Notes: generated from the sequence alone by a model not told the origin. A DNA stretch of 64,000 nucleotides from an uncultured Eubacteriales bacterium (GCA_902766965.1 CACXFJ010000047.1:3165-67164), one strand, 5' to 3'; positions 585-58,166 are shown, counted from the stretch's first letter. A program made the numbers and translations.

Positions 585-698
585 ATGAAACCGAAAAATC
601 AAGAATCCATATCGCGAAACGGAAGAAAGAAATCTTTCTTTGCGTATGCGTTGATGTTGTTGCTGGTACTGGCGTTGGTATTCAGCATCGCGGCGTGT
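585..698 (+). other. Signal peptidase II-type signal peptide with lipobox (Cys38) of the giant protein
   Basis: The n-region RNGRKK, the h-region FFAYALMLLLVLALVF and the lipobox SIAAC are followed by a Gly/Ser-rich tether (SQRPDDSGSGGGG). This is typical of Gram-positive lipoproteins. Confidence 0.8.
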
Positions 699-3600
699 TC
701 GCAAAGGCCCGACGACTCGGGTAGCGGCGGGGGCGGAGAAATCAAACCCGACGCAAACAAGGAACAAGTCGTCAATGTTGAAAACTTATCCGCTCGCGAA
801 TACATAAAGACTTCGGTTAAAAACCTCGGCGCTACCTACGCCGCCGATCCCAAATGGCTTAATATAGACTTCGGAATAACTTTCTCCTTCAATACCTACG
901 CTAAAGTCGACGAAAAGTACACCGACGATACGGTGACCGCCGTCGATTATAACATAGTGGTTAAAGCCGCTATAAACTTGGAAGACAACGCACAAAGTGC
1001 GTTGTTCGTAGAAGTGACCGATATAAGAAGCGACAAAGTCAAGGCGGGCTTCTATTATTACGACGCGACCACGTACGTCGATATAGGCGGCAAAAAGTAT
1101 TACGCCGAACAGCTCAATTTAAGTCAGTTGGGCGGAGCGTTGCTGAAAGTTCTCAAAGACAAAGAGCTCGATATAGTTCCCCTTGTCGGTAATCTTCTCG
1201 GAGCGTCGCTCAATATGAAAGGCGCGGAGCAAATAGCGGGACTTTTGCCTACGATTTGGACCATATTGTTCAGCGGCGACGCGAACATCGTTTACAGCGC
1301 GGAAAAAGACGGCGATATGCCGAAATATCAATACATAAATCAGTATTTGAACGCCAACATTATCTTCGATATGATTATGAAGAAGAAGATAGAAATCAAA
1401 CCGTTCTTCGCTCTCGACCTTACGTGGGAAGGCATAGCGGGACTTCTCGGTATGGACTTACCCAATCTCGATCCCCTTTTAAGAGCGTTTTTAGGGTTCG
1501 GACTTGAAGATATAGTAAATAAAAAATGGCCGTCCATGACGGTGGAAATCAAAGCCATTACCGAACTTGCCGACGTAAAACAAGCCGATAACACGACCAA
1601 AAAGGATTACAAGTTTACCGGACTTGCGATAGACGTTCGGAGCGAAACCAAGGAATACGACCTTAATCTTAAGATTAACCCGTTCAAATTAAACACGAGC
1701 GACAGCGACGAAGTCAAGATGAACCTCGCCGGTTACAACTTCGGCGCGTCGGGGAAAAACAGCACTTACGAAAAAGCGAGTTTCACCAATCTCGAACTCA
1801 ACCTTAATCTCGGCGTGGACGCGGAAAAGGACGAAGAACTTACTATAGACAGTCTTTTGGGCGGTTTCCTCGATTTGGGCGCGGTGGGAAGCATACCTTT
1901 GCGCATCTCGGGCAATTCGCATTACGACTTCGACGTAAAAATCGCCGCAAGTCTCGATTTGTTCAACAACGCCAACAACAAAGCCCAAGCTACGATTAAG
2001 TACTGCGGAGCGGAAGTGATATCGCTGTATCTCGTACCCGACCTGTCGTTGCAGGAAGGAAGCTCGGTAATGTTCAATACTTTGTATATCGACGCGAGCA
2101 ACCTTACGAGCAACGGCAAGGCTCTTATGCCGCAGCTGCGACTGCCCTCGCTGAATATTACGCAGATTCTTGCCGGTACGCCCGAAGTACCGGGTCTTCT
2201 CGGCAAAATAATGAAGTATTTCGATCCGTACTACGCGGGAACGACGAGCGGCACCCGTCCGAGTAACGCCGACGAAGAAGAGAAAGGCGGTCTGGACGTA
2301 ATGAAACTGTTGCAACTATTGTTGCAAACCGACGAACAAGGCAATCTTAAATGCTTTACTTTCCCCAATGACGAATCCAAAGTCTTCGGACTGAAATTCG
2401 ATAACGCGGGAATAAACACGCTCTTAGGTATGTTCAAGCCGGGCTTGAGCCTCGGCGTTTACGGCGTGGGATTATCTTTGGACCTCGCCGATATATTCAA
2501 TTCGATAAGGTTAAAACTCGACGTGACCGAGGACATGAACGTTCACGTCGGTTTCGGCAAGACCAATCAGGACGGAACTTATACCACGGGTATAAGCTAC
2601 TTCAAGGCTCCCGTGTTCGATATGGACGCTGTGGGCTGCGACAGCAACGGCGACGTGCCGAGCGACGGAGTGGAGAAAGCGGAAGCGTTGAGGGGCGAAT
2701 ACAGGTCCATGGCGGGCGCTCTCGAATACGGAGCTACCATTACCGGCGACTTTAAGATAGGCAGCAACGCCGATACGGAAATCGATTTGTCTGCGATCGT
2801 GGGGGCGTTTGTCAAGAACGTTCTCGTCGGACTCGGTATAGAAACCGGCAGCGAGCTTCATATAGGATACGAAATAAAAGCCGGCGTAAATCTTTTAAGA
2901 CTGTCCGAACTCGGTCTTATAATAGATTTGTATCTGTTGGACGACGAAGGGAAAAAAGTTTACGGATTCCCCTTCCTCACCCTTTATTATTCGGGTACGG
3001 ACGATACTCTGTACATAAACCCGAGAGTCGACGAAGAAGCCGATATGGTGACTCAGCTTCACGACAAACTCGGATTTACGAAGATAATCGACGGAAAAAT
3101 TCCCAAACTCTCCATTCCCGACATAGGACTTGCGAAGATACTCGGCAAGATTAAATTCGACTTCTCGAAGATAGGCTCCATAATCGGCGCCAACGCCGAC
3201 TTTAATTTGAGCCTTAACGCCGACGGAACCGTCGAATTCGGAAAAGGGCTCGACGAAGAAGATATGCAAAAGACCCTTCTTCACATGTTGGCGGACACCG
3301 TCGTCCTTAACGCCGACGGCAACGGCTCTGCCGGCGGCTCTTCTTTGGATATAATGGGTCTTATCGGTAAAGCGATAGAAGAGATATCCGTCAAAGACGG
3401 CAGGCTCGGCGTCATCGTAAACGCCGAAGTTCTGAGCGCGGTCGTAGCCCTCACCTCTCTCGACATAACGGGAGATTTACCGAAGGTAAACGGCAACCTT
3501 TTCCTCCATCTCGGCACGCAGATAGCGTACGACGCGAACGATAATCAGCTTTACGAATACACTTACTACAACGCCGAAGGCGTGAAAGAGAAAAAAGTGT

Positions 3601-6600
3601 TTTCTTATAGGTATAACGAAGACGGCAGACTCTTTATCTACGACGAAAACGGCAACCTTACCGACTGGAATATAGATATGAACAAGATAGTTCCGCACTT
3701 CGTGGACAAAAACTATCTCACCGCTTATATCGGAATAGTGGACAGCGACACGGGCAAGAAAGACGCTTTGTACGTCGGACTTAATCTCATAGAGGGAATC
3801 TCGATGAAGAAAGGTTCCGACCTCGAATTTATAGGCGGTCACAGCCCCGCTACCTATACCTCTCTGTCCGAATGGGTGAAAAACCTCGTTATTTCCGTAA
3901 ACGTCGAGTTGGAAATCAAATTCGCGGCGGGTTCGCCCGAACTTATCCCCGAAAAACTCAACGCGACCATAGGTAAAATGTTGAGAGAAATCATGGGTAC
4001 CGCGGAGAACAGCGAAGAATTCCTCGACGTACTCATTAAGAGCGTGGCTCTTAAAATCGACAACGATTACTTCTATAACACGGGACTTGACGTAGGTATC
4101 GCCATAAAGGGAAATATAAACATTAACAATATTTTCGAAAGTAACGTCGGCGTGGTACTCTTCGATAAATCGGCTCCCGACGCAAGCGGATACATCGCAA
4201 GCGACGGACGCGGATATACCGTAATAGCGGGCGTATACGTGGACGACAATAAAGGTTACGTCGATTTCAGTTACTTCGGCGTCAACAACATAGCGGTAAG
4301 CGACCTCGAAGGTACTTACGTAGGCGCGATAGCCTTGGTTTGGAACAGCACGTACAACAAGACGAGCGACACGAGAATAAAACCCGAAGACGCCTATAAC
4401 AGCAAACGTAATTTTATGGATTACGTCATGAAAGAAACCGTCCTTAACTACTTCTTCGACACCTTCTACGTAAGGCACGGTTATGCAAGCCGTTATCCGA
4501 CGAGTTCTTATAAATATCTCCTTAACGACGACGGATATATCTATCTGTACTTTGCCGACGCATTCGGAAACAACTTCGATTACACCGACAAGTCCTGCGA
4601 TATTTCGTTGAAAAACAGTACCAGAACTTACGAAATCGACAATAACGGAACCATCACTATAAGAAACGCGACGGGCGAAGTATACGCTTCGATTTCTCCG
4701 TACATAACCACCGACGGAACGCCGTTACGGATAAGCGTGGCGGAAGAAGAAGAAAAAATGCGTCTCGACCAGTGGGAAGCCGACGACAGAAATCAGGAGC
4801 CGAGGACCCGTTACGTCGACCTTAACGACTTGCTCGCAAGCAAGTCTAATTCCGCATATAAAAAGATGCTCGCAGACTACGCGGCGAAATACGACAGCGT
4901 CCGTAACAGAGAAGGAATAAGCGGTCAGCTCTATACCTTGTTGGAAACCGAGTACGCAAACACCGTAGCGGAAATCAAGAACTATTTGAGAGCGGTAATA
5001 AAGGTAGACAGTTACGTTACCATTCAGCGTCAGCAGGACGTTGCTCTTATAGACTTTTTGAAGACCGACGAAACCACCGACACGGGCAAAGGTAAGACCT
5101 ACGCCGAAATGTACGGCGGCAAGACCAATTCGCAGATAAGAGCTTCGGAAGACTACGTAAGACTTTTCCCCGAATGGGTGGAAAAAGCAGTCGAAAAACA
5201 GGTTGAAAGCGAATATACCGCCCGTAAAGTGACCGAAACCGAACTCAAAGCGGTCACCTGTTTCAGAATAAAGAACAATCTTCTTTTCCGTGCGGAACTC
5301 GACGCAATCAAAGAAGAACAGCAACCGAAGAGCGCGGACAGCAAAACCGTGGAAGAATTCAGAAAGTCGTTGACGCCCAACCTCAATTCCGACTTCCGCG
5401 TGCCTGCCGTCGGAGAAAACGCCGACGTAAGCAATCCGAACCGCGTCGCGTTACAGATACTGTTCAATTCCGGCAAAGTATCGGTAGAACTTTCCGCCGC
5501 TACTATTTCGGCGGTACTTACCATGCTGGGCTTTGAAAAAGTAAACGACTTCGTCACCCTCGACAACATAAAGCTCGGACTTAATCTGAACGACGGAATA
5601 GAGCTTGCGTTATCGGTAGCCTTCGGCGGAACTTACGAATTCGGTTTGGGTCTTACCAAGTTAAGAGCGAGCGTCGACCCCGACAAGCGCGAAGAATACT
5701 CCGTAAGCGTAAACACCGACAGATATAATCCCGAAAACACGACCGACGGCGTGCCGAACGCGGTACACGTTTCCGCGTCCGGGTCTATATATATTAAAAA
5801 TGATACGGGCAAAGCGGGATTGAGATTAAGCAACGATTACGATATCACCGACATGATAGGAACGTTGTTCAGCAATTCCGATTTCAAGAAGACCGACCTC
5901 GACGCTATCTACGCCGGAATAGTTGAAGAAAACAGCGGTACCGATATGACCGTCACCGCAATGAAAGCGGCTGCGTGGAGAAAACTCGACGGAACCGAAC
6001 TTTCCAAGAACCAAAGAGACGAAATGGCTACCCGTTACGCTTCTGCGGTTAAGGACATAAAAGCCAACAAAAACAACGTCGAAGAATGGAAGTCGTGGGT
6101 GGAAGGCGACGACAACTACTACGCCATGGCGTGGGATTATCTCGTAAAGAACTCGATTATAGTCGACCTTAACGACCTTGCGATGTCCATTATGGCGCAG
6201 TTTATGGGCGAAATGAACGACAGCCTCGAATTCAAAGTGGACGCCTGGTTGGAGTTCGCGAGCATATACAGCAGCATTCTTAAAATAGAACTTATCCGTC
6301 ACACCTATTCCGAAACCGACGGACAAATTCACGACGAAGCCGTACTTACCCTCTTCTACGACGGAAGTAAAGTTCCCGTAGGCGAAAGACAGTTCTCGGG
6401 CGACGTTTACGTCTCCACCAACATATTCAACATCGGCAACGTGGTTCTTAAAGACGTCACCGCGGTAATAAACGGAGTAATGGAGATATTCGATTCCTCC
6501 TTTATGTCCTCGCTTAACGACGCGATAGACAAGTTCCTCGGACTGAACAAGTCGGATAATTCCTCCTCTTCCGCTTCCTTTGCTTCCGACAGAGCTTCCG

Positions 6601-9600
6601 ACGCGGACGGAGCTTCCTACGCCGACGGAGAAAGCGGCGACGATTTAGCCACTTACCTTAATCTTATGTTCAGAGACGGCAGCTTAGGTATAGCCGTCAC
6701 CAAAGCCACGCTTATAAGCGTGATAAGAATATTCGGTATCGACCTTACCGAAGCCTTGTCGGAACTCGATTTCGGACTCGAAGTTCTTATAGGGTTCAAG
6801 GGAGCTCTCGACGTAAGCGCGAATATCTATCTCGACGCCGAAGGGAACGTGACCGAAAAAGGCAATCACGCCACCGAAATAGGCGTGACTATCGGTAATA
6901 TAAACGCAAGTTTCGAAGAGAACATAATTACCGACGAAGACAGGAACAAAACTTACGAAGAAGTAGAGAAGTTCACTACCGTAGGATTGCAATGGGGCGG
7001 TCTTACGTCCTTTGCGATGAGCGACGTGTACAGGAACTTTAATTTCGACTACGCCATTAAGATGTTCGCCAATTACTGGTTGGACGGACGCGACTGGGGC
7101 GTGGGCGGACAGATAGACATAGCCGACGGAGATATCTTCAAGCAGGCTACCTACTTCTCCATTAACGCCAACGTAAACCTTACCACCGTTAAGGACTTGA
7201 AGAACATAGAATTGTTCCTGAACCTTACTTCGGAAAAGAACTACAAACTTTACGAGAAGTTGGCTCCGAGAAGAAAGTCCCTCACCACTTTACTTAAAGC
7301 GTGCGGAGGAGAGAAGGACGCGGCGTGGCGTCAGCTCGTAAAAGATTTGCAGAATTCCGCTCCCGGAAGCGGATACGACCCGGACGGAAACCTTTATACC
7401 AAGGAAACGCAGGTTCTGGACGATTACTTGTGTTATCGTCTTATGCTCGATATTCAGACCGAAATACGTTCTTCGGGTAAATACCTTACCGAAACCGATC
7501 AGTTTATCGCGTGCTGGAACAAGCTGTACGGATTAAGCGGCGACTTCTATTTGGGCAACGCGCTCTCGTTCTACGTTACTCTCGACGCCGAAGGCGTAGC
7601 CGACGTTTATCTTAACCTCGGTTTCCTCGGAGTGGAAAGAATTAAGTTAAGCAACGTAAGTCAGATTCTCATAGCTTTAGCGAAAGGCTTCGGTTTCGAC
7701 TGGGGCAAAATAACCGGCAGAAGCGGCAACGCCGCCTCCAACGCCGCCTCCAACGCCCCCGGACAAGACCTTACGAGCGCGATAGCGAGAGAAATTCTCC
7801 TTACCATTAACACCGAACAAGGCAAAGACCTTCTCATGCTCAAAGTTACCGGCGGAGCTATATACGCTCTCGTGGCGGCTCTCGGCGTAGATATAGAAGG
7901 CTACTTCAATAAGTACACTCCCAACCTCTATCTGAGCGCGCTCGGCAAAGATTTAGTCGAATTGAATATAGAGTTGGAGAACTTGTTCAACTTATCCGTA
8001 GCAATAAATTATCCCAACTTTATGCTTACCGACGGTATGGAACTCGTAATAAACGAGGACGCATATACCGTAATCGATAAAGAATGGAACACCGACTTCA
8101 AGATATTCTTCGAAGGTTCGTTGGCGCTCGGAGCGAAAGGCGCAGACACGGCGACTTCCCCCGACGATATCACGTCGATAAACTTCGGCGATTTGTTGCG
8201 CGGACTGTTGAAAAACGAAAGTTTCGCAGTAGACGTAATATTGAAGGCTCTCGAAACGGTGGGCGCGGACTTATCGTTCTATCTCGAAGCGAAAGCGAAC
8301 ATCACGCAGCTTTATATGCTGATGACCTTGCTTACGGCGGACGAATCCACCCTTACCGACGCGCAGAAAGAAGCTAAAAAAGCTCTCTACGGAGAAAACG
8401 GCAAGATAGACGTACTTAAAGTATTGAGTTCTTCGGGCGTGGAAATGTTCCTCGAAATAGTAAATCGCCGCGCGGACAGCGTAAACGCGGGCTGCATAAA
8501 AGAAGACCTCGTTGTGGGTATTTACCTCATTAAAGAAACCTCTCCCGACGGTCTTAGCGAATACTTGTCCTTATACGTGGACATGTCCGCTTTCCACATG
8601 GGCAGAATTAAGGTAGCCGACTTCGAATCCACCGCCAACGCGCTCATCAAGAGAATAGGCGAATTGTTCGGCAAGTCCGATACCGACGGTGAGAAAACGG
8701 ATTCCGAAACCGGCAAAACGGGTTCCGAAACCGGCGATACCACCGCTAATGCGGACGTAAACGAAATAGACGCCGAATTCACGAAAGGCGCATTTGCGAA
8801 GGGTACCGAAATATACGACTTCGTAAGATACGTCGTATGGATGAAGTCCACCGCGGAAAACAGCAAAGGAAATCCGGATAAGATACCTTCCGACCTCTTC
8901 CTCACCGAGGCGAGAATGAACGAACTTCTCTCCGAAATCGGAAAAGAAAGGACCGACGGACCCGCCAACGCTCCCGCTTTATACGCCGACGGAGAACCGT
9001 TAAGCGACTTTATACACGGAATAGTCGGCAACACTTACGGTCTTACCGTATCCGCCGCGGCGAACGTTCTCGTAAAACTTCTTAACGAAGCCTTCAACGA
9101 CGAAAAGAGTCGTTTCTCGCGAAGCTTCCTAAGTTACGTCGACGACTTGTATAACGGAGACAAGGAAGAAGAAATTCTTGAAAGAAAGATGATTTTGTCG
9201 AGAATGAACGATATCCTTATCGCGAACGAATGGGTAGAGGGTGATACGAGCGACGAAAACAACAGAAGAAAAGCCAACGCCTGGGAAGCTCTTCTCGACA
9301 GCAACACTCTCGGCGAATACTACTCCGTCAAAGCGATGGAAATTTATAACGAGCTTGCCGCAAGCAATCCGTCCGACGCCGACGTTCGTCCCGCCGCATG
9401 GGATAAATTGACCGCGCTCGTTAAAGCCGATATAGAAGCCATACAGGCTACTCTCGACGACCTTTCGGCAAAAACCGCTTTCCGCGACGTAATCGCGAAA
9501 GAATACACCGATTACTACGTCTCGGGCATAGCTCTCGACAGCTACGTCAACGCTATGAACATAAAGCTCGACGCGTTAAGCACAGCTTACGAGCAAGCGG

Positions 9601-12600
9601 CGGAAGCCGTAGATAAGATGTCGGGCATATCCGAATCGGCAAAACAGGCTAATATCGAACGTTTTGCGTACGAATACTTCGTCGGAAGATTCAATTGGAG
9701 TACCGCCGAACGCGAAGCGTATATAGGTGTTTACAACGCGAAATTTACCGAAAGCGGCGGCAGCGTCCTTACGGCAAGTTCCGAAGCGTGGAAAGCTATC
9801 CGCGGCATGATAAACAACGAGTACGAGAATTTACTTTCCGCTCTGCGTTACGTCAACTCTTACGCATATAACGAGTTCGGCTTGAAGACCACGGGCAATC
9901 AGACTCTCAACGGTTCGGAAGAGGACTTTATAAGAGAAAACAACGTATTTATAATAGCCGACGGAAGATATAGCCGTTACGCAGAAGCGGTAAGCCATAC
10001 CTATAAGGCGATGGCGTGGAAGTATCTTGTGAGCAACAAGGCGATAGACGCCGAAGCCGCCGACGGATATTACACCGCCGCGGTAAATACTTACGTAAGG
10101 AACGCCAGAAACCTTCTTACCTTCCTCGAATACAGATACGCCGCCTGGAAGTATCTTAACGCCGACGCAAAGCGTATCCTCGCCACCACCGAAGACGGGA
10201 ACAAATTCGTGGTAAGAGCGACCACGGCGGAAGACGGTACGGTGACCTGGTACAAGACCGAAATTACCGAACAGTATCTCGTCACGTTAGAAGACTACTA
10301 CGACAAGTCGTATTCCGAAATACCGCAGCTTATCGTAGACGCGGCTAATAAGGAAGGCGTGCTTACGATAGGTTTCTTGTACGACGGTTCCATCGCGAAC
10401 GTCAGCGCGGAAATAGCCAACCTGTATCTTAAAGTAAACTTCGTCAAAGCGGGTATAAAGATAGCCGACAGCGACCTTTCGAGGACGAGACTTCATTACG
10501 TCTACAACGATTACGACGAAGTAACGGGACAGGAAGAAGTCACGGAAGCAGTCAACGACGAAAATCTCCGTAAGACCAACGGAGAATTCTCTCTTCTCGA
10601 CGAAAACTTCGGTTACGTCTACGCAAAACTCGACGTCGAATTCGGTCTTAATATGGAAGACGACGTACAGTACGACTTTACCGAACTCGTAAATTCGCTC
10701 CTTGCAAAACTCGGTCTTAACCTTAATATAAAAGGACAGACCTTGCAGATAGCGCCCGTACTCAGCATACTCAGCACGGTGGGCGACTATTTCAGAATTT
10801 CTCTCGAAGCGAGAGTAAATCTTTTCCGCCTCGTCAAAAAGGATTTAAGCGACACCGACATATCCCTTACCGTATATTCGCTCGACGCGAACGGAAAGGT
10901 TAAAGAAACGGTATTGCAACTGGTATTCGGAGCGGGACGCGAAGAAGACGGCACCGAATACGATTTCGTATACGTAGACGCCCACAGATTCAATATTCAG
11001 CGTCTGTATATAAAGAACGCGCTCGAACAGATTAAGAAACTGTTAGGCAACGCCAACGCCTCTTACGCCGTGTATCACGATATTCATAATGGCGGCTCGA
11101 TAGCCAAAGTCGTTATGGCAGCTATGATAGCCGACGTGCTTGCGGTAGACGACGGCGATTATTCCGACACCATATTCGGAGCATTCCCCTCTTACGCCGA
11201 CGGCAACGGCGGTAACAACCCCGAAGTCGACATAAATCTCGCTAAGTACGGAATGAGCGTTCAGCTCGCCGCAAACGCAATCTATACCTTACTCACCTTC
11301 TTGGGTATGGGCGACGTCAAGAGTATGATAAGCAAAGTCGGCTCGCCCGAAATAGCTCTCGACATATTCAGCGTGGCGAATTACGGCAAGGACGGCACCG
11401 TATTGAAGGATTACGACGACGGCGACAGAAACTTAATAGCCGTAAGACTTAACTTCGACAGCGTCAACGAAAACGGCGTCAGCACCGGAAGAGGAATAGG
11501 TCTCGAACTCGCCATAAGGAATATGGAATTGAGTTTCGCGCAGGATAAGAGAATAGACTTTAACGAAAACGAAGTATTAAAACGCGACGAAAACGGCGAT
11601 CCCGTCGACTTTGCCGAAGTGGACGGCATGTTGCCGAAGATTGCGTTAAAGACCACTATTCTTCTCGAAATCGACGCCGGCGTAACCAACGGAACCAACC
11701 TCTATCAGGAACCCGTCAACACGATAATGAAAAATTATCTCGGCGGACTCGTGATGGATATAGCTCTGTACATAGCCAACAAACAAAAAATAACCGTAGC
11801 CGTAGACATAGAAGCAAGTCTCGATTTAGGCAACGGCGAAGACAATAACTATCTCGCTCACCTCATATTCGGTTCTTCGCTCCGCGTAGCTCTCCGTATA
11901 TTCAGAGTGGGAGACAAGGTATCCACCGACCAAAAGAAAGAATGGGCGGTAATAACCTACTTCGGCGGCAATCTTTATATCGACCTGTCGGAACTTAACA
12001 GCGACAAGTTGTATCTTGCCGACGCGGGAAAACTCATTTTCGGCAACGGAAAGGACAAACAGTCGCAGGCGATGTTCGCCGCGTTCGACGCGCTTAACGC
12101 CGCAATAGGAGCGGTTAAGTTGGGCGTGGACGCCGAAATAAACTCTTCGGGATTATACCTTATCGTAAAGAAAGCCGCCATAGCGAGCATGCTGAAAGTA
12201 TTCGGTTTCGGCGGTTTCGATATGTTCCCCGACGCGGCTATTCAGCTCTACGTCAAAGGTATGAAAGTCGAAGACGGCGTAAACACTTTCGATATGGGGG
12301 TTAATCTCGCTCTCGGCGAAAATCTCGTCACGGGAAGTACCGAACTTAATCCGATATTAGGACTCGGTATGTCGATTAAGGGACTTTACGTAGGTTTCAG
12401 CGGACTCGATATTCAGGTATCCGACAGCGCGGAATATATCCGTATCGACCGTCTCGACACCGTCTACTTCTCCACCGAAATAATAATCAACGTTACCGAC
12501 GAAAAGGGTATCTACAAGTTGGGCGGACTGTTGCAGGTTCTTAAAGAGAACGGCTACTTCGACCTGGCGGCGACTCTCGGTATAGACACCGCGATAGATC

Positions 12601-15600
12601 CTATTATAGAGTTCCTCGAATCGCTCGACTCCAAACTTTACGTCAAGATTGACCTCACCGTAAACGTTAAGAAAATTATCGACGACTTACAGGCAAAAAT
12701 AAGTATCTATACCAAAGCTCCCGAAGAAAGAGCGGAGAACGAAAGCCCCGTGCTTAGCTTCGCTTACATAAGAGGAGACGTCTACGTAGACGCCGAAGGG
12801 ATAAGCAACAGCGACAACTTCTACTTAGGCAAAGTCAAGATATCCAACCTTATGGACATAATTAAGTCGCTTACCGGTTCGGGCGCGTCCGGCGACGCGA
12901 AGAACACGTACGAGAACATCAAAGCGTACGAACAACTCTTCTCGAAAGAATCTTCTTCTTTCGCCGACGTGAGCGATAAAGTCAGCGGAACCATAAATAT
13001 TATCGGCGACGTAGTGAAAGGTCTCACCGTAGAACTCGTCAACGGCGCTATATTCGGTATCCTCAAACAGCTCGTGGGCGTGGATATGAAAGAACTTATT
13101 ACCAACGTGGAAACGATGGTGAACAGCGTCATCGACCCCTATCTCGGAATTACGATTACTCCGAGTATGACCATTCGTATCACGATAGGTCTGCCGAGCA
13201 AAGCCTATAACGTGTCGGAAAGCGTTATTGCCGTACCCAAGAGTATGGAAAACGCGATAAACAACTGGTACTCCGACAGGAAAGATTCCCTTATCTACCC
13301 CGACGACGCGTGGAACAAACTTTTCGAAGGCAGTCTTTTGTACGATTTGTACAACGTTTCCGGTTCGGTCAAAGCCGACAAGGTAAAGGAATGGATTTCT
13401 CTCGGTCTTCCCGACATAAGCGCGGTTTACGCCGAGATGCGTTTGCGTTTCTCGAAGATGAGCGACAACCAAATCTATACTCTCACCTACGACTATATGA
13501 TAGGAGAGATTTACGGCAACGATTCTCTCGCCGCCGCGTACGGATACGATTTCGCTTCCGACAAAGTAATAGACAACGTGACTAAACGCAGCGAAAAACT
13601 CTACGCTTTCTATAACGATTACTTAAAAACCGTCGCTTTCGACAGCTTCTATGCCGCTGCCGACGATACGGTAAAGAGCGTGCTTGACAGTATGCTTACC
13701 ATCTATTCGGGCAGCAAAGTAGCCGTTTACGACGCGTACGTAGTAAGTACGGAAAGCGGAGCGGACGACTTAAGAAATCTTTACGAAAAAGACGTTCATA
13801 AAGAGAAGATAGACGAAATGAAATCTTCCGTAGGTCACGAAGCGGTCGTTTATATGAACCTTATTAAAGGTATCATGAACGCGACTTTCGCTATGGAAGA
13901 CGCCTGGATATCCTACGTATCCGATCAGATTAAGTACACTTCCGGCAGCGACAAGACGAAGATTTATCTCGCTAAATACGACGAACTGTACGCTGTTCAG
14001 CGCGCGTATGCGTGGGACGCGTTCATGGCGAAAGCTATTGAGGATAAGGACTACGTCAAGGTAGCGATGATGGAAAGCGCGTTTAACTACGCCGTAGGAA
14101 AATACAAGACCGCTACCGAACAGGAACTCAAAGCCTACGCTTACGACAAGTACAGAAAAGACCTTATAGAAGACTCTACTATTTACGAAAAAGCTCTCAT
14201 AGCCGACGACGAAAGCATATTGAAGACCGTCGTTATTAACGGTATGCGTCTCTATAAGTACCGTGCGGAAAGCGAAGACATAAGTTCCGTAGGCGTGACC
14301 AAGGACGATATTACCGACATGATAGCGATAATCGAAGCGATAATCTCGGGAATTCAGTCTTACAGCGTCAAGAATACCGTTATTCTTAACGAATATCAGG
14401 AAGCGGAACTCGCGTACGATATCATATTCTCTTCTTCCGACGCTCTTAACGCAATAAGCGAACTCTTCTCCGGCAATTCCACCGAAGTGTTGAGGACGAT
14501 AAGAGGTTACGCGATAGACGCGTTGAGAAAATCCGACGTCGAAAGAATAACCAACCAGATAGTCGCCTCCCCCGACGAAACGGAATCCGACAAGACGGAA
14601 CTTCTCTCCGCCCTTATAGGTCGTTACGCCGACAGGTTTGAAAAAATACGCGGTCGGTCCGCAGAGCAACTCGCAATAGAAGACTACGCCGACGGAAAAT
14701 CTTTCCGCGCGGACGCTTGGAACAACCTAATAAGTCTCGAATATAAGAGTATCCTCCCCGAAAACGCCGTTATTCTTTCGGTGGAAAACGGAGCGAAGAA
14801 CAGCGGATACGCAATTAGCGAAGAAAACAACGGTTACGAAGTCAACCCGTCGGTTTACTTTGCGAACAATTACAACGTAAATATCGAAAACGATATGCTT
14901 AAATTAAGTCTCGTCTACGCCGAACTCAAAGCGAGAGCGAACGATAAGACTAAGTTTATCGAAGCGGAAAATTACGCCGACGACTCCGACAATATCGGCA
15001 ACGTAATCAGTATCTGCGCTAATTCGGGCTACGGCAAAGACGGATATCTCGTCGAATTTTACAGGACGGCGAGAAGACTTGCCCGTTATCTCTACCTTAC
15101 GGGAGCCACCTTATCCGCCGAAGCCGTCGAAACGGTTAAAGCGGTAGGAGCAAATAATTACGGAGTAATATCCTGCGAAGCGTATTACGACGGTTTCGCT
15201 TCCTACAAGGGAGAAAGCGCGGCTCGCTACGGCGAAATAGCCACCGCTCTCGGTATCGTGAAAGATATGTACGATACCCTTAAAGAAGAAGAAGCCAAAC
15301 TTAATAAAAGCGTAAGAAAGGATATTAACGACTCCGTTAAGTCGATAATGCCCGCTCGCGAAATCACCACCGACAATCTCGCCGAAGCAAAAACCAACGG
15401 CGAAATAGTCGACGGCAAGGGTATGCCTTTGTATCAGACTTACCTTGCGCTCGTTATGTTCAAGACTAAGTACGCGGGCGACGCGTCGATAATCGCGGCG
15501 TTCGATTACGCGGAACAATACAGTTCTCTCGGACTCAACGAGTTCGTTGCGGCCATATACGGCAGATTCGTTAAGATTTGCGTATCCGAAAATCTTAAAA

Positions 15601-18600
15601 AAGAACTCGAACAGACGATTACCGCCTTTAACGGCGGAAACTATTCCGCCCTTACCGCCGAAGCGTGGAAAGCCTTTAATTTCGACGGCGACGTCTATGA
15701 CAACGATCGCAACGTGGTCGAAATCAAGGAAAGAGTGGCGTTTATAAGTAAGTTGTTCGATAGAATAACCGACGAAGAGTACGCTAAACGTTCGGCGTGG
15801 GGAGCGTGGTACAGACTGTCGTCCACCGCCGCGAGAATAGAGGAAATGGACAATATGCTCAGAGCGAAAGTGTTCGAAGAGCTTTATCCGTCCATAAAGA
15901 ACCTGCTTACCGAAATAATCGTCGGCAACGCAAATACCGTAATCAAAGACGGTATGAGCGTAATAGGAGTAAGCGCGAAGACTTACGAAACGGTCAACAT
16001 TATCTCCTATAACGAATACTTCGAAAACCTGAAACGCGAAACCGAAGCGCTGTACGCTACCCTTAAAAACTACGACAAGGAATTGACCGCCGCGTCTGTC
16101 GCCGCCGAAAACGAACTTACGATAGAATTCGAAAGTTCCGCTACCGACGTGCAGAAAGCGTCGATTATGAAGAAAGTTTACGACGAAATCGCCGCAAACT
16201 CTTCCGCATACGCCGCAAGCGTAGCGGTAACGTGGGCGGAAAGTTACGTTGAGGCGCGCAAAGCGTTAATAAACGTTGACAGACAGCAGTACAGCAATCT
16301 TATGTACGACAGACTGCCCGACGCCGACAAGAACAAATATATATCCGATATATTCGCCGTCTTTAACGCCGCGGTAGAGTTGACGATAAACAAGTACGCC
16401 AACGTGACGGAAACCGTTCTTCTCGGCGACGCGAAGACGAACTTCAATAGTCTTATAGAAGAATACGTCAGCGCTCATGTGTCCGACGTGGAGAGCGCAA
16501 GAAGTACTTACGAGTACGAAATAAACTATATCAAAGCGTGGAACAAGTACTTCGCCATTGCGGAAAACGCGGGCAAAACGAAGGAAGACTTCGAAAACGA
16601 TATGAGCGCGTTGGACGGCGGAATAGAAGAATATCTCGGTTCCGAATACACGAACGTACCTTATACCGTGCCTACCTATCCTGCCGACGCGTCGACAGCC
16701 ACCACGATAAAAGGCTTGAAGACGTTGTGGGACAGCGCGGTAGCCGCCGACAAACAGATAAGAAAAGACGCGTTGAAATTCAAGTACGACACTTACGCTT
16801 ATAATAATGACGCAGGAATTACCCTCGCCGAATACAACGCGGGTATAAAAGCCGTCGATAACGAGAACTATTCCGAAAGGAACTACGTCATGTACGCGTA
16901 TCTTAACAGATACGGCGATCTCGTGAGAAAACCGGGAGAAACGGAATACGGTTTCTACAACAGAAAGATAGTAGGTTTGAGAGTGTTGGAAAACGACGCC
17001 AAAATTAACGAGTCGTCGAGAACCGTCATTATAGAAAACTCCGGCGAATATCGCACGGCGGCGCTCGCGTGGGAAAACCTGTTCAAGGATAACGAGACCT
17101 CTATCGACAGAAAGACGCTTCTTACGGCGGTATATAATTTCTGTCTCGACGAATGGTACTCTTCCGACGCTACTCTCGTCGGGTACAGGAACGATATTTA
17201 CTCGGTATACTACGATACCGCGATTAAGGTGTTCGACGCTCTCTTCGCGGCAGGTCATATCACTTCGCTCTTCGGCGGAACCGACGCAAAAGTCGAATAC
17301 AACGACTATATGGCGAAGTTCGACGAATTGAAGGCGGCTGTTTCGGCGCTCGGCTCCTCTGCGGAGCAGACAGACAAAGACACCGTCGGTCTGTACGAAA
17401 AGAACAGGACGGATGTCTTGCTCACGCCCACTGCCAAGAATAAGGCTATCCTTATAGAGAAGATATACGAGTCCTACGTTGCGGGCAGACTTTCCGCAGG
17501 CGTGGTATCCGATTTCGACTCCGTGCTTACCGGATACGGAGCGGCGTTTGAAAATAAGGTTTACGAAACAGCTTACGAATACTTCACCGTACATATCTAT
17601 TCGGAACGTAACGGCGTAATTTACGACGAATTCAGGACGAAGATAGCGGCGTTGTACGACGAATACGTTACCGTAGCGATAGCGTTGCTCAAACAGATTT
17701 ACTTTGAAATCACCGGTTCGGAACTGAACGTAAACACGATTACCGCCGCGGCAAGCGCTTTCAGCGGGTTCGTAATCCCCGGCGAATATTCGAGGTTCGT
17801 CGCGTTCGTTAACGTGTTCGCAGACGAAACGGCTAAATTTACCGAGGGCGGAGTTTTGAGCAAAGACGGCAAGCTGAAGACGCTCGCCACCGTCGTTAAA
17901 GAAAACGGCGCTTTGTCGGGCAACGACGCCGTCGTGAACAAGATGACGGAGATAAGAAAAGCGTTCGTCACGTTCGTAAGAGACAATTACGTAAACTTCG
18001 GCGCGACCGAAAATATGTTCGTAACGCTCTCTAAGTATTACGAAAGTTTCGCTGCTCTTTCCAAAGAATATTCCGCTCTGTTCACCACTGCGGAAACCGC
18101 CGCTAAACGCGCCGAAACGAAGAACCTTATTGCAGGTTACGGATACGACGTAAGCGGAGCAAGCGACGCTTATATAGATATGCTCAGCGTAGTGTTTATG
18201 GCGGGCAGCGGCAATATAGGCGGCATTAACAGAATTTACAGACAGAAGTTCGACAGCTACGCCAAGGACGTGAACAGCGCGGTATACCTTACCATTACCG
18301 AAGTTGCTTTCAGAAACGCGCTCGCGGCAAACTACGACGACATAGCCGCCGCGATAAAGGCTAACGACCCGCTCCTTAAACCTTTCGTGGAAGGACAGGG
18401 AATAGACTCGACTTCTACCGCGCAGGAAAAAGCTCTCGCCCTTATCGCTCTCAGCGACGAAATAGAGAGTTATCTCGCGTCGGGCAAGACGTTAAGCGAA
18501 GTAACGTCGGCTAAGTACGCGGAAACGAGAAGCGCTGTATTAAGCCTTACCGAACCCGAAAAATACCTTACTTCCGCCATTTGGAACAAGTATTATTCCT

Positions 18601-21600
18601 TTAACGCAAGCGAAAAAATAAAGAACGCGCTTGCCCTTAAAGAAACTCTCGCCGCGGGCAGCGTCGGCGACGTCACCGATTACCTTACTTTCGTCGAAAT
18701 GAGCGATATACTTAAGGAATATCTTTCCTACAAGCAGTCGCAGGCGATAGTGGATCTCGTAGCGACGCTCGAAGACAGCTTCACCATAACGAAGAGTTTC
18801 GATCAGATATACAAGAACGCGTTGAAATCCGCCGAAGCGTTGGCTGACTTTACGTTGTCCTTAGGTATCTCGGGTAAGGATACGAGCATACTCTTCGACA
18901 TAAAGAGATATCAAGAAGACGAAACGGGCACGAGCGTATCCCTTATTAAAGACGTTCTTACCGACGAAGAAAAAGCGGAATACACCGAATACTCCGAGCT
19001 TACTTTGAGAGTAAACGTCAACGCTTCTCTCGGAATAAACTTCGACGAAGGTCGTCTCGACATCAACCCGCTCCTCAACCTCATCAACCTGCCCATTAAA
19101 CTTAGCGAACTCGATATAGACTTCCTTGCGGAACATACCCTGTACGCTACGATAGTAGGACAGCTCGGTATTAACTTCGAAGCGTTGCTTTCGGGCGACA
19201 AAGACAGAATTAACAGTTCCATAGTGGGAGAACTCGCTCTTACCTATTACCTCATCGACCACGACACCAACGGCGAAAATACGAGATTCGAGCAAGTTCT
19301 TATGCATATATGGCTCTACGGTCCGAATATCTACGCGCAGGTAGAACTCTTCGACAGCCACGTCAGCGCGAAGATACCTTTCGCTCTCGGCGAAAAGATT
19401 ATGAGTAAGGTAAAGCCGTCGAGCGGAGAAGAAGGGGGCGAAAACAACGGCAACGCCTCTTCCGCCGCCGTGATAAAGGCTTTGAACACGGCTGTGATGA
19501 GCGCTTATCACGGAGTGAGCCGTGAAGAAGCGGAAAATATGCTTAACCCCTTCGAACAGCTCTATTCCGTCGTCAACAACGCCGACAGCAGCCTTACGGA
19601 CGTACTCGAAGTATTGCTGAGAATAGGCACGAAAGAGACCGCGCTTCTCCTTACCGTCGATATTTTGGCGGAACTCGTCAAAGTCATCTTCAAGGAAGAA
19701 ACGTTGAGCAGCGACCTCGAAGACCTCGTCAATCTCGCCTTTACCGAAGGAAAACTCGCCATAGAATACGGCGACGACTTCGGTTTGAGTTTCAGCATAA
19801 GAAAGAACGCCGAAGAAGGCAGCGACAAGATAGGTTACGACGCGGAGCTCGCGTTGTTAAGGAACACCGTCGTAAGTCTCGACAGAGCCAAGTACGACAG
19901 TCTCTACGGCTCGATAGACGAACTTTACAAAAACGGTTTCTTCGAAGACTTCTTTGCCCTCGGACTTAACGTAGACACTTCCGCTACCCTTAACGAAATA
20001 CTCGCTTCGATAATCGGCGCGCGTACTACGGTAAGTTTCAGCATCTACCTTGAAAGCAACGTCCTTAAATCCATATTAGACTGGAGCGACTTGTTCAGCG
20101 TTCAGGAAATAGAAACCTTCTTCCAGCTCAAAATATTGAAGAACGCAAACGGAAGAATTCGTCTCGACATAGGTCTCGACATCGACCTTGAAAAGACGGC
20201 GTTCGACTTCTACATAAGCGGTTATAACGGCGACAACACCAACATATTCAATATCTACTTCGTCGGCGGACTTCTTAACCACGACGGAGAAGGCACGGGA
20301 ACTCTCGATCCGAAGATTTACGTCGACTGCGGAGACGGTTTGCACGACAAACTGTTACTTACTCCGCAAATGGGTTACAACCTGTTTAACATTAACCTCG
20401 TCAACATATTCTTCTATCTTATGAACAGCGATTCCCGCTATGAAATAGATATGAGTAACGCCGCCGATTTACGCAACGCGCCTTCCTTCGACGCCCTTAT
20501 AGACGATATGGACTGGAGCGACGTCATAGAAGGTCTTACTTTCGGTAAAGGCACGGTAGGTATAAGACTTGCTACCACGATAGTAAACGCATTCTTGCAG
20601 GCTCTGTTCGGATTCGAATTCGCAGAACTCGGCAACATCAAGCTGAAACTCGACAACGTAAACAATACGCTGTTCCTGACGATTCCGCTCGACGCGCCCG
20701 TCTACGACGAGAACGGCAACGTGGTCAACACGTCGAAAATTGACTTCGGATTCGGCTTGTCGGATATAAACGTAAGGCTCGGGCAGAGAGAAAACTTCTT
20801 CGGCGAAAACATTTCCGATAAATTCTCGACGGGATACGAACCTTTGGATAACTACGTTTGGGTTACCGAAGTCAACAGTTCGTTCCACATAAACGACGAT
20901 TTCAACACGGCTCTCGACCTTTCGGGACTTACCGCGTCGCTTATCAACGGTCTCGGGTTTAACATTAAGAGCGGCGACGCTCTCGACGTCGAGATACTGT
21001 TCGCGTTGCGTACCTACATAGACTTCTCGGATATAAGTAAATTAAGATTCGAGCTGGAAGTGTCTCACGGCGACGGAAACGGCTCCGTAGTTCAGAGAAT
21101 ACTCTCCGTAAAATACGTAGGCACGGAAGACGGCGGCACGGTCTACCTCGACTTGTCGGGACTCGGTTTGCCGAAGATTTCGTTAAGCAACGTAAACTTA
21201 GGAAAACTCGTAAAGGATATTCTTAAAAAGATAGAAACGGGATTGAGTAACGACGAAAAGGAGATCACGCCCAAACAGGCAGACGGCACCGTCGGCAACG
21301 ATATTACCGACGCGGAAAAACGCGCGCAGAGATACCGCGATATAGCGGATATGGAATTCGGTCAGAATATGCTTATGCTTATCTACTCCGACGAGGAAGC
21401 GAGCATAGCAATAACCGGCGCGTTACTCCTTACTTTGGTAGGAAACCTTAACGACGTTCTCGGCGGAATTCTTCCCGACGTATTGCTCAATATACCTACG
21501 TTCAGCTACGTCAAGATAGGTCGCGACGACGCCGATAAGGTAAACGGTATTCAATTAGTGCTGGACGAGAACAAACAGTTCTCCATTCGTTACAACTTCG

Positions 21601-24600
21601 ATAAGAGTTACTCTCACTTGAAGCCGAGGGCGAAACTCGACGAAGTGACCGATATGACTATCGTCAGCGACGCAGACAAGGACGAATACACTTCGATAGA
21701 TAAGTTAAAGAATATGCATATAGGTCTTAATCTCGACCTCACCTTGCAGACCAAGAATCCGGGTTCGGGCGAAAAGAGCGACGTTATTTCCGGGTTCGAA
21801 GATATGCTCGAAAAGATACTCGGACTCCAAGCCGACACCATACTGTTCGACTTGCAGGATACCACGATGACGTTCAGCATAGGACTCGATTTAGGCATCG
21901 ACCTTACCGATTTCGCCAAGTCGGTATTGAAGTTGGAAATAACCTATAACGACGAAGTCATGATAGGTCTTTATTACATCGACGGAGTGGTTTACGCCGA
22001 CTTAGGCACGCTCGGACTATTCAGAGCAAGCATAAGCGGTATCGACCTTGCGGCGATGATTATGAGCATGCTTTCGGGGACCGATTTCGAAGCGATGATT
22101 ACCACCGACGGAATAGACGTCGCGGGACTCGTCGGCGGAATACTCGACGCGGAAAAACTCAACGAGGGCGTCAAGGGCAGTACCGTCAAGTCGAGCACCT
22201 TTATAAAACCCGAAACGAAAGGTTCGGCTTTGACCGATTTCGATTCCGCTATGCAGAAAGTGGCTTCCGGCACTCTTAACAGCGGATATACGACTAAACA
22301 AATAGGCGTAATAGCCGGCGCTATGACCGACAATAAGATTAAGACTTTGTCGGGGCTTACGGCGGAACAGAACAGGGCTCTGTACGATTATGTTTTGGGC
22401 GGAAAGAGCATTGCGGAATTTATAATAAGCTCCGCCGCCACCGACTATCTCTACTACGGAGAAAAGACGAGAGTAGCCAATGCGATAAGCGCGCTTATCA
22501 CCTCCGCGCAGAGTACCCTTAAGGGTATGACCTCGGCGCAGGTATCCGACGCCATAGCCGACAGCACGGCTTCGGGCAAGACCTATAAAGGTTTCGGCGT
22601 AAAACAATTGAAGTTTATTTACGACGTTCTCGAAGAAGAAAAACTTGCGAGCGTCGACAAGATGAGCGCTTCTCTCAAATCGAAGATAGCTTCCGACTAC
22701 GCAGAGAAGAAAGCCGACGTGATAAACGAAGTTCTGTTCGCCACCGAAAAAGATATGGTAAAAGCGGTGGAAGACTTTGTCGCGAACATGGTCAAGTCTT
22801 TCGAGGGAGCCACCTCCGACATACTCAAAGCCGTCGCGAGCGGAATGACGGCTTCGGGACTCGACTTCCTCGAAATGAAAGGAAGTCACTACGACGCCGA
22901 GGGCAATTCCGAATCCAACGTGACCGCAAGGAAGAGAGCTTTCGTCGAAAAGACGGTAGATTCCTACTCCGCCGACTACGTCAACGTGAAGTACGGTATC
23001 ACCGATTCCGAAAAAGAACAGTTGAAGGCAAAGACTCTCGCGCATTTCGGTATCTATAATAAGAGCGGCTCGTCCGTAAGCGGCACCACCGGCAACAACG
23101 TGGTCGGAAAACCCGTCGTGAACCTCATTCTCACCAACACCGAAATAAAGATAAATCCGAACGCGGCTACCCTCGGACTGATAGTCGGTATGCTTATGCC
23201 CGGAAAGAACCTTTCCGTACCCGACTTTAAGCGTATGGAACTCGTTCTTAACACCTACGACGGATTGAGCAATATCAACTTCAATTTAGCGTTAGACTCG
23301 TACGGTAACAAGGTAGCCTTATCCGTACCTACGGGCGGACTTACCTTTGCCTTTAACGAAGGCGTGGGAGAACTCGCCGGCGGCAAGGACAAACCCTTTA
23401 CCGAAATGTTCGACTTGCCCGACGTATCCTCTTACGGCGGATTGACGGGCGTAAGCCTTAACGGCGGCGGACTTAATCTTAATACCACCGCTCTCGTAAA
23501 CAGTCTCTTGGACGGTATATTCATAGACGACCTTACTATCTATCTCGAACACAGAACCGATTACTGGTCGAGAAAAGATTTGTTCGCGAAATACCCGAAA
23601 GTAGACGCGACCGGTCCGTTCACCTACGCCGATAACGACGACGGATATTTGGGTAACGACGCCGCCGCTTTGAGCGGAATAATGAAAGTTCTCAATGTCA
23701 TCAATAAGATTTACAATCTCATCAACGTCAAGAAGTGGTATCAGTACTTTACCGGCGGAAAAGGATTGTTCGACGCCGTCACCAACACGAAGAACAAACC
23801 CGTATTCACCCGTAACCAGTACGCGAGAGGAAAACTTTTGGCGTACAAGTCGGTCACGAACGTAATCAACGCCGATATATCCACCCCGTCTTACAAACAG
23901 GGCAACATAAGCGCGCATATCGACCATCATCAGATTTTCGTGTCGATAGGTATGTCGCTTACCATTAAGATTTATATAACCCTCGATTTGAGTTCTTTCC
24001 TTAACGGAAGTAACGAGGGCGTGGAAAGTAAGGGTCTTAACCTGTCCAACATTATGGGTATGGTACTCTTCCCCGACAGTATGTTCGCGTCGGAGAACGC
24101 CGCTAACGGCACCGGCAGATTCTACGGCAGAGTCACCGACACCGACGGCAACCCCGTAAAAGAAGCCACCGTAACGATAAGTAACGGCACCGGCGATTAC
24201 CAGACCAGAACCACCGACGCCGACGGATATTATTACTTCTTAAATCTCCCCGTCACCGAGCATATTTACGGCGAGTACAATATCTACAAACTGGAAAAAT
24301 GGCTCAAAGAAAACGGATTCTATAACGAGAGTACCAAGACGTACACGAAAGAAGAAATAAACTACGACGGCAAGGATTATCGCCTTATCGACGGCGTGTA
24401 CTATAATCTCGGCGACAGAACCGCTATAAGCGTGTCGAAAGACGGCTGTTCTGCCTTCTACGAAAGAGATATCTTCGTCCTGCCGAAAGAAACCAACACC
24501 GCGATAAAACGCGACGTGGTACTCGTAGACGCGGCAAAGACGGGCGAAGTACCCAAGGACGTGACCTTCAAAGGCAAGTCTTATTACAAAGACGGAGAAA

Positions 24601-51479: not shown

Positions 51480-51494
51480 TCGACAGGTGATAAG

Positions 51495-52646: not shown

Positions 52647-52677
52647 ATAACTTTATGAGGAAAATAAAGGAGGCATT

Positions 52678-55266: not shown

Positions 55267-55327
55267 GGTAAGGCGGCGAAGATAAAAATCTTCGAAAACA
55301 CACGAATTTAACAAAAAACACGTTGCG

Positions 55328-55352
55328 CCCTGCGGGATAATATCCCGTAGGG
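55328..55352 (+). promoter_or_regulatory. Intra-operon stem-loop between the SBP and permease genes (possible attenuator or mRNA-stability element)
   Basis: CCCTGCGGGA-taata-TCCCGTAGGG forms 10 bp with one G-U pair. A T5 run begins 9 nt later, so this is not a canonical terminator. Confidence 0.3.
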
Positions 55353-55481
55353 TTCGACGGTTTTTAAGAGAAGACCTTAAAAAATAAAGGTCGTACGAAA
55401 GAAAAAACGCACCCGTAAAGGGTATGATACACACCCGATACTTCGTCTTACGGACGGAGCCAGAGAAGGCAGGATATAATT

Positions 55482-57014: not shown

Positions 57015-57027
57015 GGAGGCGTAAACA

Positions 57028-58161: not shown

Positions 58162-58166
58162 CGGCA

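Follow-up and report, generated by a model that had tools for sequence, protein, structure and literature searches.

A conserved Asn-Ala motif in the inter-module linkers of a giant, unannotated surface lipoprotein family, possibly a module-start cap or turn

In this analysis, we examined a short recurrent motif in the linkers of a giant repeat-built protein encoded on a 64,000-nucleotide stretch of DNA from an uncultured Eubacteriales bacterium (GCA_902766965.1, CACXFJ010000047.1:3165-67164; the whole stretch is referred to as the window, and positions are counted from its first letter). An initial annotation of this DNA had described a [SNP]x[YFN]-A-D-[GEV] motif in the low-complexity linkers between the repeated modules of this protein, and had proposed it as a possible processing or hinge site. 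We found the linker motif to be real and stronger than had been claimed, but defined too narrowly: across the protein family, the conserved core is the dipeptide Asn-Ala (N-A), roughly [PVA]-[SLQ]-N-A-[ASDP]-G. As the earlier annotation had observed, the motif is located shortly before an amphipathic helix. We tentatively favor the reading that N-A is a structural start-of-module helix cap or turn inside a flexible loop, rather than a processing site.

Results

The motif was assessed relative to motif B, an element of the repeated module consisting of an amphipathic helix, a strand and a helix with the pattern 'A..h..hL..LG.D', for which a hidden Markov model (HMM) was built from its copies and searched back. 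The protein, whose first 7,600 residues contain at least 13 copies of motif B, and the copies themselves are as follows.

585..35609, plus strand: giant open reading frame (ORF), 11,674 residues, a bacterial surface lipoprotein with a predicted mass of about 1.3 MDa
2292..23288, plus strand: thirteen copies of motif B, starting at residues 570, 927, 1617, 2019, 2400, 2806, 3543, 3843, 4131, 6335, 6645, 6925 and 7508

For statistical tests in the window, we took the 40 residues before each of the 13 HMM-located motif-B copies and compared them with shuffles made within each of these segments, which keep their composition. The pattern [NYF]A[AD] is present in 11 of the 13 segments, against a shuffle mean of 1.96, and 0 of 5000 shuffles reached 11; the narrower [YFN]AD[GEV] is present in 7 (shuffle mean 0.15). 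Since this excess of [NYF]A[AD] is measured over composition-preserving shuffles, it indicates a real, position-specific motif beyond low-complexity composition. The two motif-B copies at residues 6925 and 7508 are without an upstream N-A-type motif. The linkers themselves are low-complexity and rich in Ala, Ser, Asp and Gly, and the motif lies in parts of them to which AlphaFold2 (AF2) assigns a predicted local distance difference test score (pLDDT) of 30-45; in agreement with the earlier description, they are probably flexible loops.

All of the linker peptides listed in the initial annotation are present where it had placed them, although three do not represent the conserved element. In a relative with 37% identity (L003), NANASYAVYHD lacks conservation and the stretch with TTANADVNEID is deleted, and in the case of APSFDALIDD the conserved parts are two N-A dipeptides immediately upstream (SNAAD, RNAPS). 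The annotation had further pointed to an excess of the exact tetrapeptide YADG. The count itself holds, with 5 copies against 0.35 expected by composition, but it is not significant across all tetrapeptides: its Poisson p of 3.1e-5 compares with a median best tetrapeptide p of 4.2e-5 in 200 protein shuffles, and GLNL is more extreme. As shuffled proteins yield tetrapeptides just as extreme, and as two of the five copies (residues 4701 and 9324) lie outside linkers, YADG over-representation carries no weight and was dropped as evidence.

The host is a Christensenella-like organism. Its nearest genomic relatives are Christensenella sp. UBA6420 (L001, 90% identity) and L002, an uncultured Christensenella metagenome-assembled genome (MAG) with 86% identity; L003, the 37%-identical relative, is a 'Clostridiales bacterium' MAG. 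Among metagenome contigs, two are identical to the window and one more (L006) has 33% identity. The motif sites of the window, with the peptides that align to them in these and other relatives, are listed below.

2259..2279, plus strand: linker 1, PSNADEE (N561-A562); aligned SNA, NNA, RNA and SNA in P0003, L003, L006 and 10 further relatives
3303..3323, plus strand: linker 2, VLNADGN (N909); aligned in relatives LNAAEDG, FNADGDG, YNADGDD, ANADAEN and QYAEGDE
5412..5432, plus strand: linker 3, GENADVS (N1612); aligned in L003 ANAAIP
6612..6632, plus strand: linker 4, ASYADGE (Y2012, Tyr variant); orthologs KNAAV, LNAAQ, LNAAD and SNASS, and FNAAAL in P0001 (62% identical)
7722..7766, plus strand: linker 5, triple motif GNAASNAASNAPG (N2382, N2386, N2390)
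8961..8996, plus strand: linker 6, PANAPAL and ALYADGE (N2795, Y2800); SNAE in L001 opposite LYADGE, RNAAG in L003
11187..11207, plus strand: linker 7, PSYADGN (Y3537, Tyr variant); aligned QNAAG (L003) and KNASAAG (L006), deleted in L002
12090..12110, plus strand: linker 8, ALNAAIG (N3838); KNAFG in L003, KNAAG in L006
12954..12974, plus strand: linker 9, SSFADVS (F4126, Phe variant); SSVYDD in L003, low-confidence AF2 helix from A4127
19572..19592, plus strand: linker 10, VNNADSS (N6332)
20451..20489, plus strand: linker 11, MSNAADL and LRNAPSF (N6625, N6631)

Asn is thus replaced by Tyr or Phe at four sites of the window (residues 2012, 2800, 3537 and 4126). Alignment of the linkers across homologs, which the initial annotation had proposed as a check, gave a divided answer, with the N-A core conserved and Y-A-D-G not. 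Judged from these alignments, the Y-A-D-G of the window is a lineage variant of the N-A core, opposite which orthologs carry N-A-A-G or N-A-S-A. Linker 5 retains a double N-A in L003 (KNAAMNAPG), in L006 and in P0003 (SNAPSNASG).

The family-wide evidence is more extensive. In L003, [YFN]AD[GEV] is found in 0 of 7 segments and N-A-A in 6 of 7. Among distant, non-redundant relatives, [YFN]AD[GEV] is found in none of 32 linker segments, whereas N-A is present in 26 of the 32 (shuffle mean 12.0) and is the most enriched dipeptide of all, with 52 occurrences against 19.7 expected (z = 7.3); the reverse dipeptide A-N is not enriched in these relatives (11 against 14.7). Held-out sequence, comprising the tails of P0029 and P0022 and the second ORF of L008, has N-A in all 6 new segments (P = 0.003). 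Unsupervised Gibbs sampling of 45 segments recovered x-[PVA]-[SLQ]-N-A-[A/S/D/P]-[G], with N in 38 and A in 37 of them and a log-likelihood of 317, compared with 241-252 for shuffled segments. In MAFFT alignments of 53 and of 43 copies, at 10-12% mean identity, 'NA' belongs to the very few positions at which the module as a whole has a majority consensus, and the consensus of both orthologous linkers over 14 family members includes it ('SNAxxxxExxGLDVM' and 'NAxGDxxxxGGxDI').

The residues around the core follow a recognizable pattern. Counted from Asn, position -3 shows an enrichment of acidic residues, -2 carries a hydrophobic residue, Ala or Pro, and -1 is S, L, Q or K/R; on the other side, A, S or P occupies +2, while +3 and +4 hold G, D, S, N or E. 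Acidic residues make up 25% at +3 and +4; basic residues are absent from +2 through +4, and at +5 they reach about 2%. From the last N-A to the start of the motif-B model there are 9-40 residues (median 16, mode 9-12). Because the model start itself lies about 5 residues inside the helix, the helix would begin at the motif in many copies, for instance in KNAAVQSVARAYIQFML, LNAEDEEVIQYISIFL, NNADSSLTDVLEVLL and QNAADAFMAQFRAI. No fixed spacing was found from N-A to the preceding hYhD element of motif A (10-116 residues). Tandem copies, two or three per linker, are frequent (SNAASNAASNAPG, SNAPSNAEEGEE, VNAPANAPMNADDE, APSNAPSAPSNADG), and the other surface proteins of the window show no enrichment of the N-A motif.

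Conservation acts at the protein level and not at the DNA level. The window has 20 copies of the 9-mer ACGCCGACG where 2.3 are expected, an approximately 9-fold excess (e.g. at 2266, 3217, 6619, 40114 on the minus strand, and 44716); 19 of the 20 lie on the coding strand, and in the giant gene all 14 copies that were checked read in the frame xAC-GCC-GAC-G. Codon and codon-pair bias accounts for this excess, GCC being 77% of the Ala codons that precede Asp throughout the giant gene. In L003 and L006, four to five different codon pairs encode the linker N-A, and on these two grounds we rejected a DNA-level motif.

Structure prediction was of limited use at the motif. For residues 500-1000, modelled with 14 orthologous rows, AF2 gave a pLDDT of 51 and a predicted template modelling score (pTM) of 0.29, which makes the model unusable; both N-A-D sites fell in coil at pLDDT 30-40, about 10 residues before helices. 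For residues 3800-4200, modelled with 43 module copies, overall pLDDT was 61 and pTM 0.52. Here, residues 160-300, the beta core, reached 76-92, while linkers stayed below 50 and a helix was drawn at low confidence from A4127 of SSF-ADV. A Foldseek search of this model against PDB returned no match at E <= 0.001, a PDB sequence profile search with the module returned 0 at E <= 1, and Pfam gave no recurrent match over the 43 module copies at E <= 1.

The module is without a match in Pfam, NCBIfam or PDB. It spans about 275-400 residues, and jackhmmer seeded with residues 3800-4200 detected 12 copies in the window protein and 118 across the family. The copies and the N-terminal signal of the protein are as follows.

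585..698, plus strand: signal peptide with lipobox (LVFSIAA-C38)
843..22370, plus strand: twelve module copies, at residues 87-290, 295-656, 654-980, 1027-1290, 1839-2085, 2079-2451, 2447-2864, 3265-3588, 3586-3805, 3800-4200, 6684-6979 and 6971-7262

With its N-terminal signal peptide ending in a lipobox that fits [LVI][ASTVI][GAS]C (...LVFSIAA-C38, read from the sequence), the giant protein is predicted to be lipid-anchored at the surface by its N-terminus. The lipoprotein signal is followed by about 7,600 residues of repeated beta/alpha modules with helical inserts and by a C-terminal beta-sandwich-type region of about 3,900 residues. Pfam gave 0 matches over residues 1-7500 (cut-off 0.01) and NCBIfam 0 over nucleotides 585-23084, that is, the first approximately 7,500 residues. 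No protease family of Pfam was matched anywhere in the 11,674 residues, and a CarboxypepD_reg-like beta-sandwich at about residue 7847 is the sole Pfam match in the protein. Apart from this domain, residues from about 7800 to 11674 (23900-35606) are without Pfam match, and the composition of the C-terminal region resembles a long series of beta-sandwich domains. A second recurring motif, A-W-[DKNRE]-x-[LFY] (AAWRKL, AAWDKL, MAWKYL, DAWNKL, EAWKAF), runs through 5970-17070 (residues 1797-5495); its sites are the helical inserts and a helical middle region of about 1,900 residues (about 4200-6100), and the dipeptide AW occurs 21 times against 7.4 expected.

The family is rare and consists of wholly unannotated giant lipoproteins. 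An exhaustive phmmer search with residues 480-1679 against 1.84 billion representative proteins returned only 19 relatives, all 'hypothetical proteins' from Christensenellaceae, Clostridia and Bacillota MAGs. Homolog searches with a 901-residue query and with the 14-row alignment returned one fragment and none, respectively, and a literature search on this protein family returned nothing relevant. All relatives with an N-terminus have the same lipobox, which was seen in 9 relatives in total, '...A-C-S' being common to P0003, P0007, P0010, P0013-15, P0017 and P0019. Equally long homologs exist elsewhere (L008, 1,834 plus at least 6,732 residues; L007, 3,629 plus at least 4,850 residues) and have the same CarboxypepD_reg end region.

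The L007 and L008 homologs are called as two or three consecutive ORFs, which in L008 overlap by 19 nucleotides, and the splits resemble frameshifts within beta regions rather than clean breaks at linkers. In the Christensenellaceae MAG L009 (the P0011 locus), an in-frame TGA at 13412-13432 stands within a linker, 10 codons before PSNAE; the frame runs on for at least 2,323 residues past it, and the TGA may stem from a sequencing error or point to a pseudogene or to read-through. We considered gene fission at linkers as a sign of separable modules and rejected it: with one linker TGA, and the other splits inside beta regions or frameshift-like, it gives no support to such modules.

BspA-type LRR_5 and/or Listeria-Bacteroides-repeat (Flg_new) surface proteins adjoin the giant gene in several genomes, namely at the following positions.

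L008:7500-9452, minus strand
L009:1-3552, minus strand
window 39776-43279, minus strand
window 51495-52646, plus strand

Discussion

We observed directly the motif itself, where it lies, that it is conserved and which residues flank it; from these we infer a capping or turn role. Each module of about 300 residues would end in a helix, after which an acidic, Gly/Ser/Ala-rich flexible loop would lead to the amphipathic helix that opens the next module. The [PVA]-[SLQ]-N-A-[ASDP]-[G/D] element would sit at or just before the N-terminus of this opening helix, where the Asn side chain may cap free backbone NH groups as a helix N-cap or in a tight turn. A small residue would follow the cap, and the next turn would favor acidic and exclude basic residues. 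In this way, the cap would fix the start point of the module and the low-complexity spacer would supply inter-module flexibility, corresponding to the hinge part of the original proposal. Several modules would have a Gly/acidic spacer inserted between cap and helix, and in the lineage of the window Asn would have changed to Tyr or Phe at four sites.

Several observations are consistent with this arrangement. The presence of N-A among the majority-consensus positions of the repeat itself favors a structural role at the module start, and the flanks, with acidic residues at +3/+4, no basic residues at +2 to +4 and a small residue or Pro at +2, fit a helix N-terminus. Measured against what an N-cap would show, namely a cap residue N, S, T or D and a first turn enriched in acidic and depleted in basic residues, the segments agree, with N in 38 of 45. 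Furthermore, the motif is confined to the linkers of this family, with no enrichment in other surface proteins encoded in the window, which fits a role within the protein itself better than a general system acting in trans.

Comparable signatures are known. The T-P-L-H start of ankyrin-repeat helices is a helix cap motif that punctuates repeats, and the ankyrin-type N-capping box or Asx-turn shares with our motif a polar-plus-small signature of 2-4 residues per repeat at the helix start, with acidic residues favored and basic ones excluded; it differs in that the motif here often stands apart from the helix behind a Gly/acidic spacer, occurs in tandem or has Tyr/Phe instead of Asn, and in that the cap is not seen in a confident structure. 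At the level of the whole protein, Ebh of Staphylococcus aureus is a giant repeat-built surface adhesin of Gram-positive bacteria. Ebh-type giant adhesins resemble the present protein in their megadalton scale, membrane or wall anchoring, tens of repeated modules and beta-sandwich region, while the module here has no Pfam, NCBIfam or PDB match and the anchor is an N-terminal lipid. We also considered a Ca-binding DxDxDG/EF-hand reading of N-A-D-G-[DN]-G and rejected it, since it suits only a few copies and none of the family-wide forms NAAG, NAPG and NASG.

A number of points weigh against a cap or turn. Capping statistics do not predict a strict Ala after the cap, where Pro, Glu or Asp would be equally good, and Gly, which disfavors helix, is common at +3. 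The Tyr and Phe that stand in place of Asn at four sites of the window are unable to cap. Variable spacing to the helix and tandem copies resemble a short linear motif read by another factor. Single copies are lost, both at linker 7 of L002 and in the last two modules of the window. Per-site identity is only modestly raised: in close orthologs, 18 of 24 motif residues are identical against 158 of 246 other linker residues, and relative to L003 the figures are 11 of 24 and 69 of 246. Finally, pLDDT is below 50 at the motifs in both AF2 models, so that no structural role is actually visible, and models of this quality neither show such a role nor exclude it.

The proposal that the sites are processed, which the initial annotation had put forward with the picture of a polyprotein-like precursor, is in our judgement unlikely. 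On this view, a surface protease acting in trans would cut at N|A, or [NYF]|A, and the module-sized fragments would stay associated. The information content of the motif resembles that of a cleavage site, with two adjacent conserved residues and weak P3/P2 and P2'/P3' preferences in exposed low-complexity loops, and redundant tandem copies and variable spacing are tolerated. There is also precedent in two groups of large surface or secreted proteins of bacteria, which are cut in disordered segments between domains (PMC3322551, PMC2900308). Nevertheless, nothing here indicates cleavage or a polyprotein, a cut would free from the lipid anchor all of the protein that lies beyond the first linker, other surface proteins encoded in the window show no enrichment of the motif, and one copy is deleted in a close ortholog.

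Neither precedent, moreover, extends fully to the present protein. The P97/P102 adhesins of Mycoplasma hyopneumoniae carry an endoproteolytic motif, S/T-X-F|X-D/E, in predicted disordered stretches (PMC3322551). Our motif is likewise short and placed in disordered stretches of a large surface protein, as the loop pLDDT values indicate, and SSFADV (residues 4124-4129) is a literal match to the Mycoplasma motif, to which S-Y-A-D is similar. However, the core here is Asn-Ala and not Phe, the strict Mycoplasma motif (S/T at P3, Phe at P1, D/E at P2') is present in only 1 of 13 linkers, while at the other window sites P3 is P or A, P1 is Y or N, or both apply. The giant protein is not related in sequence to P97/P102, and its cleavage would be hypothetical. 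In MARTX and clostridial glucosylating toxins, a P1 Leu in unstructured inter-effector segments is cut by the toxin's own cysteine protease domain (PMC2900308). These, too, are giant modular bacterial proteins with a minimal conserved site in unstructured inter-module segments; in contrast, the giant protein has no detectable cysteine or other protease domain, its site has Asn rather than Leu at P1, and its modules are of one kind and not different effectors.

A candidate enzyme was seen in the neighborhood, in that the initial annotation had connected the motif with a large S8 protease gene downstream.

43884-51479: S8 subtilase with PA insert, Big_2 and BspA-type LRRs, 2,531 residues, 8.3 kb downstream of the giant gene

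Our findings do not bear out this connection. The S8 gene and the giant gene are separated by opposite-strand genes, and the upstream 4-10 kb of L002, L003, L008 and L009 contain no S8 gene, nor do the readable flanks of relatives show a conserved protease neighbor. The S8 gene is followed by a Listeria-Bacteroides-repeat protein and then by a complete Opp-type peptide ATP-binding cassette (ABC) operon (43884-60514 in all), whose components are unusually long (OppA 862, OppB 510 and OppD 431 residues). This arrangement suggests a cell-envelope protease plus peptide-uptake unit, and the PA insert together with the adjoining operon points to nutritional proteolysis; the complete peptide-uptake operon would by itself explain the presence of the S8 gene. 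In addition, Asn at P1 is unusual for subtilases. In its boldest form, in which every N-A would be a true cleavage point, broken either by a protease at the surface or by Asn cyclisation, and the 1.3-MDa 'polyprotein' becomes about 20 non-covalently associated module-sized pieces, we consider the idea quite unlikely.

We regard it as similarly improbable that the motif, through its Asn or a neighboring Ser, is recognized for modification or by a binding partner, repeated per module. It does behave as a short linear motif in disordered loops, with multiple copies per linker and variable spacing, N-A-S or N-A-T forms a notable minority, and L003 encodes, directly upstream of its giant-gene homolog and on the same strand, a 984-residue protein with Big_2 and a transglutaminase-like core (L003:196-3150, plus strand). 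Yet A, D, E or P predominates at the third position, with S in only 8 of 45, for which reason we rejected an N-x-S/T glycosylation sequon. Tyr or Phe stands in place of Asn at four window sites, no glycosyltransferase or other modifying enzyme lies beside the giant gene in the window, and the transglutaminase-like neighbor is not conserved, L002 having FeoB and FTHFS (formate-tetrahydrofolate ligase) upstream.

That the motif is functionless, arising from low-complexity composition, from slippage during replication or from a signal in the DNA, is very unlikely. N, A, D, G and S abound in the linkers, slippage-like duplications occur there (SNAASNAAS), and both the 9-mer excess and the only modestly raised per-site conservation could be cited in its favor. 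Against this, the motif lies far above shuffles that preserve composition within each segment while the reverse A-N is not enriched, the count of motif-containing segments is insensitive to tandem duplication, and the motif recurs at 25-37% identity and in held-out sequence; the 9-mer, in turn, reflects codon and codon-pair bias, with different N-A codons in L003 and L006. The shuffles, the codon analysis and the held-out segments largely refute this explanation.

Least probable of all, to the point of being hardly credible, is self-cleavage of N-A as an asparagine-peptide-lyase-like site, in which Asn would cyclise to a succinimide and break N|A with the aid of nearby acidic residues: Asn|Ala is the autolytic bond of the nodavirus coat protein, in which the mechanism needs Asp or Glu close to the Asn (PMC3207474), and acidic residues are enriched here at -3 and +3/+4, but the known lyases are single sites in folded domains that supply the active site, while here at least 11 sites lie in low-confidence loops or coil with no Pfam or PDB sequence match and no homology to the MEROPS N1-N11 families, tandem copies are unexpected, and the Tyr/Phe variants and N-A-P copies are unable or unlikely to react in this way.

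Conclusion

Giant surface proteins built from repeats are widespread, yet the present family lacks an annotated relative as well as any match to a curated domain or solved structure. The N-A signature survives in otherwise freely drifting loops across relatives of 25-37% identity, and offers a handle on how the modules are delimited as well as precise positions to mutate or to seek in proteomic data. Were the sites cut, they would represent a processing logic not described for giant surface proteins of Gram-positive bacteria, and, were they cut or modified, a new route to a mature megadalton surface protein in Clostridia of the gut and of digesters (Christensenellaceae). If capping is their role, as we tentatively prefer, the N-A sites would define the module boundaries for structural work on a new fold.

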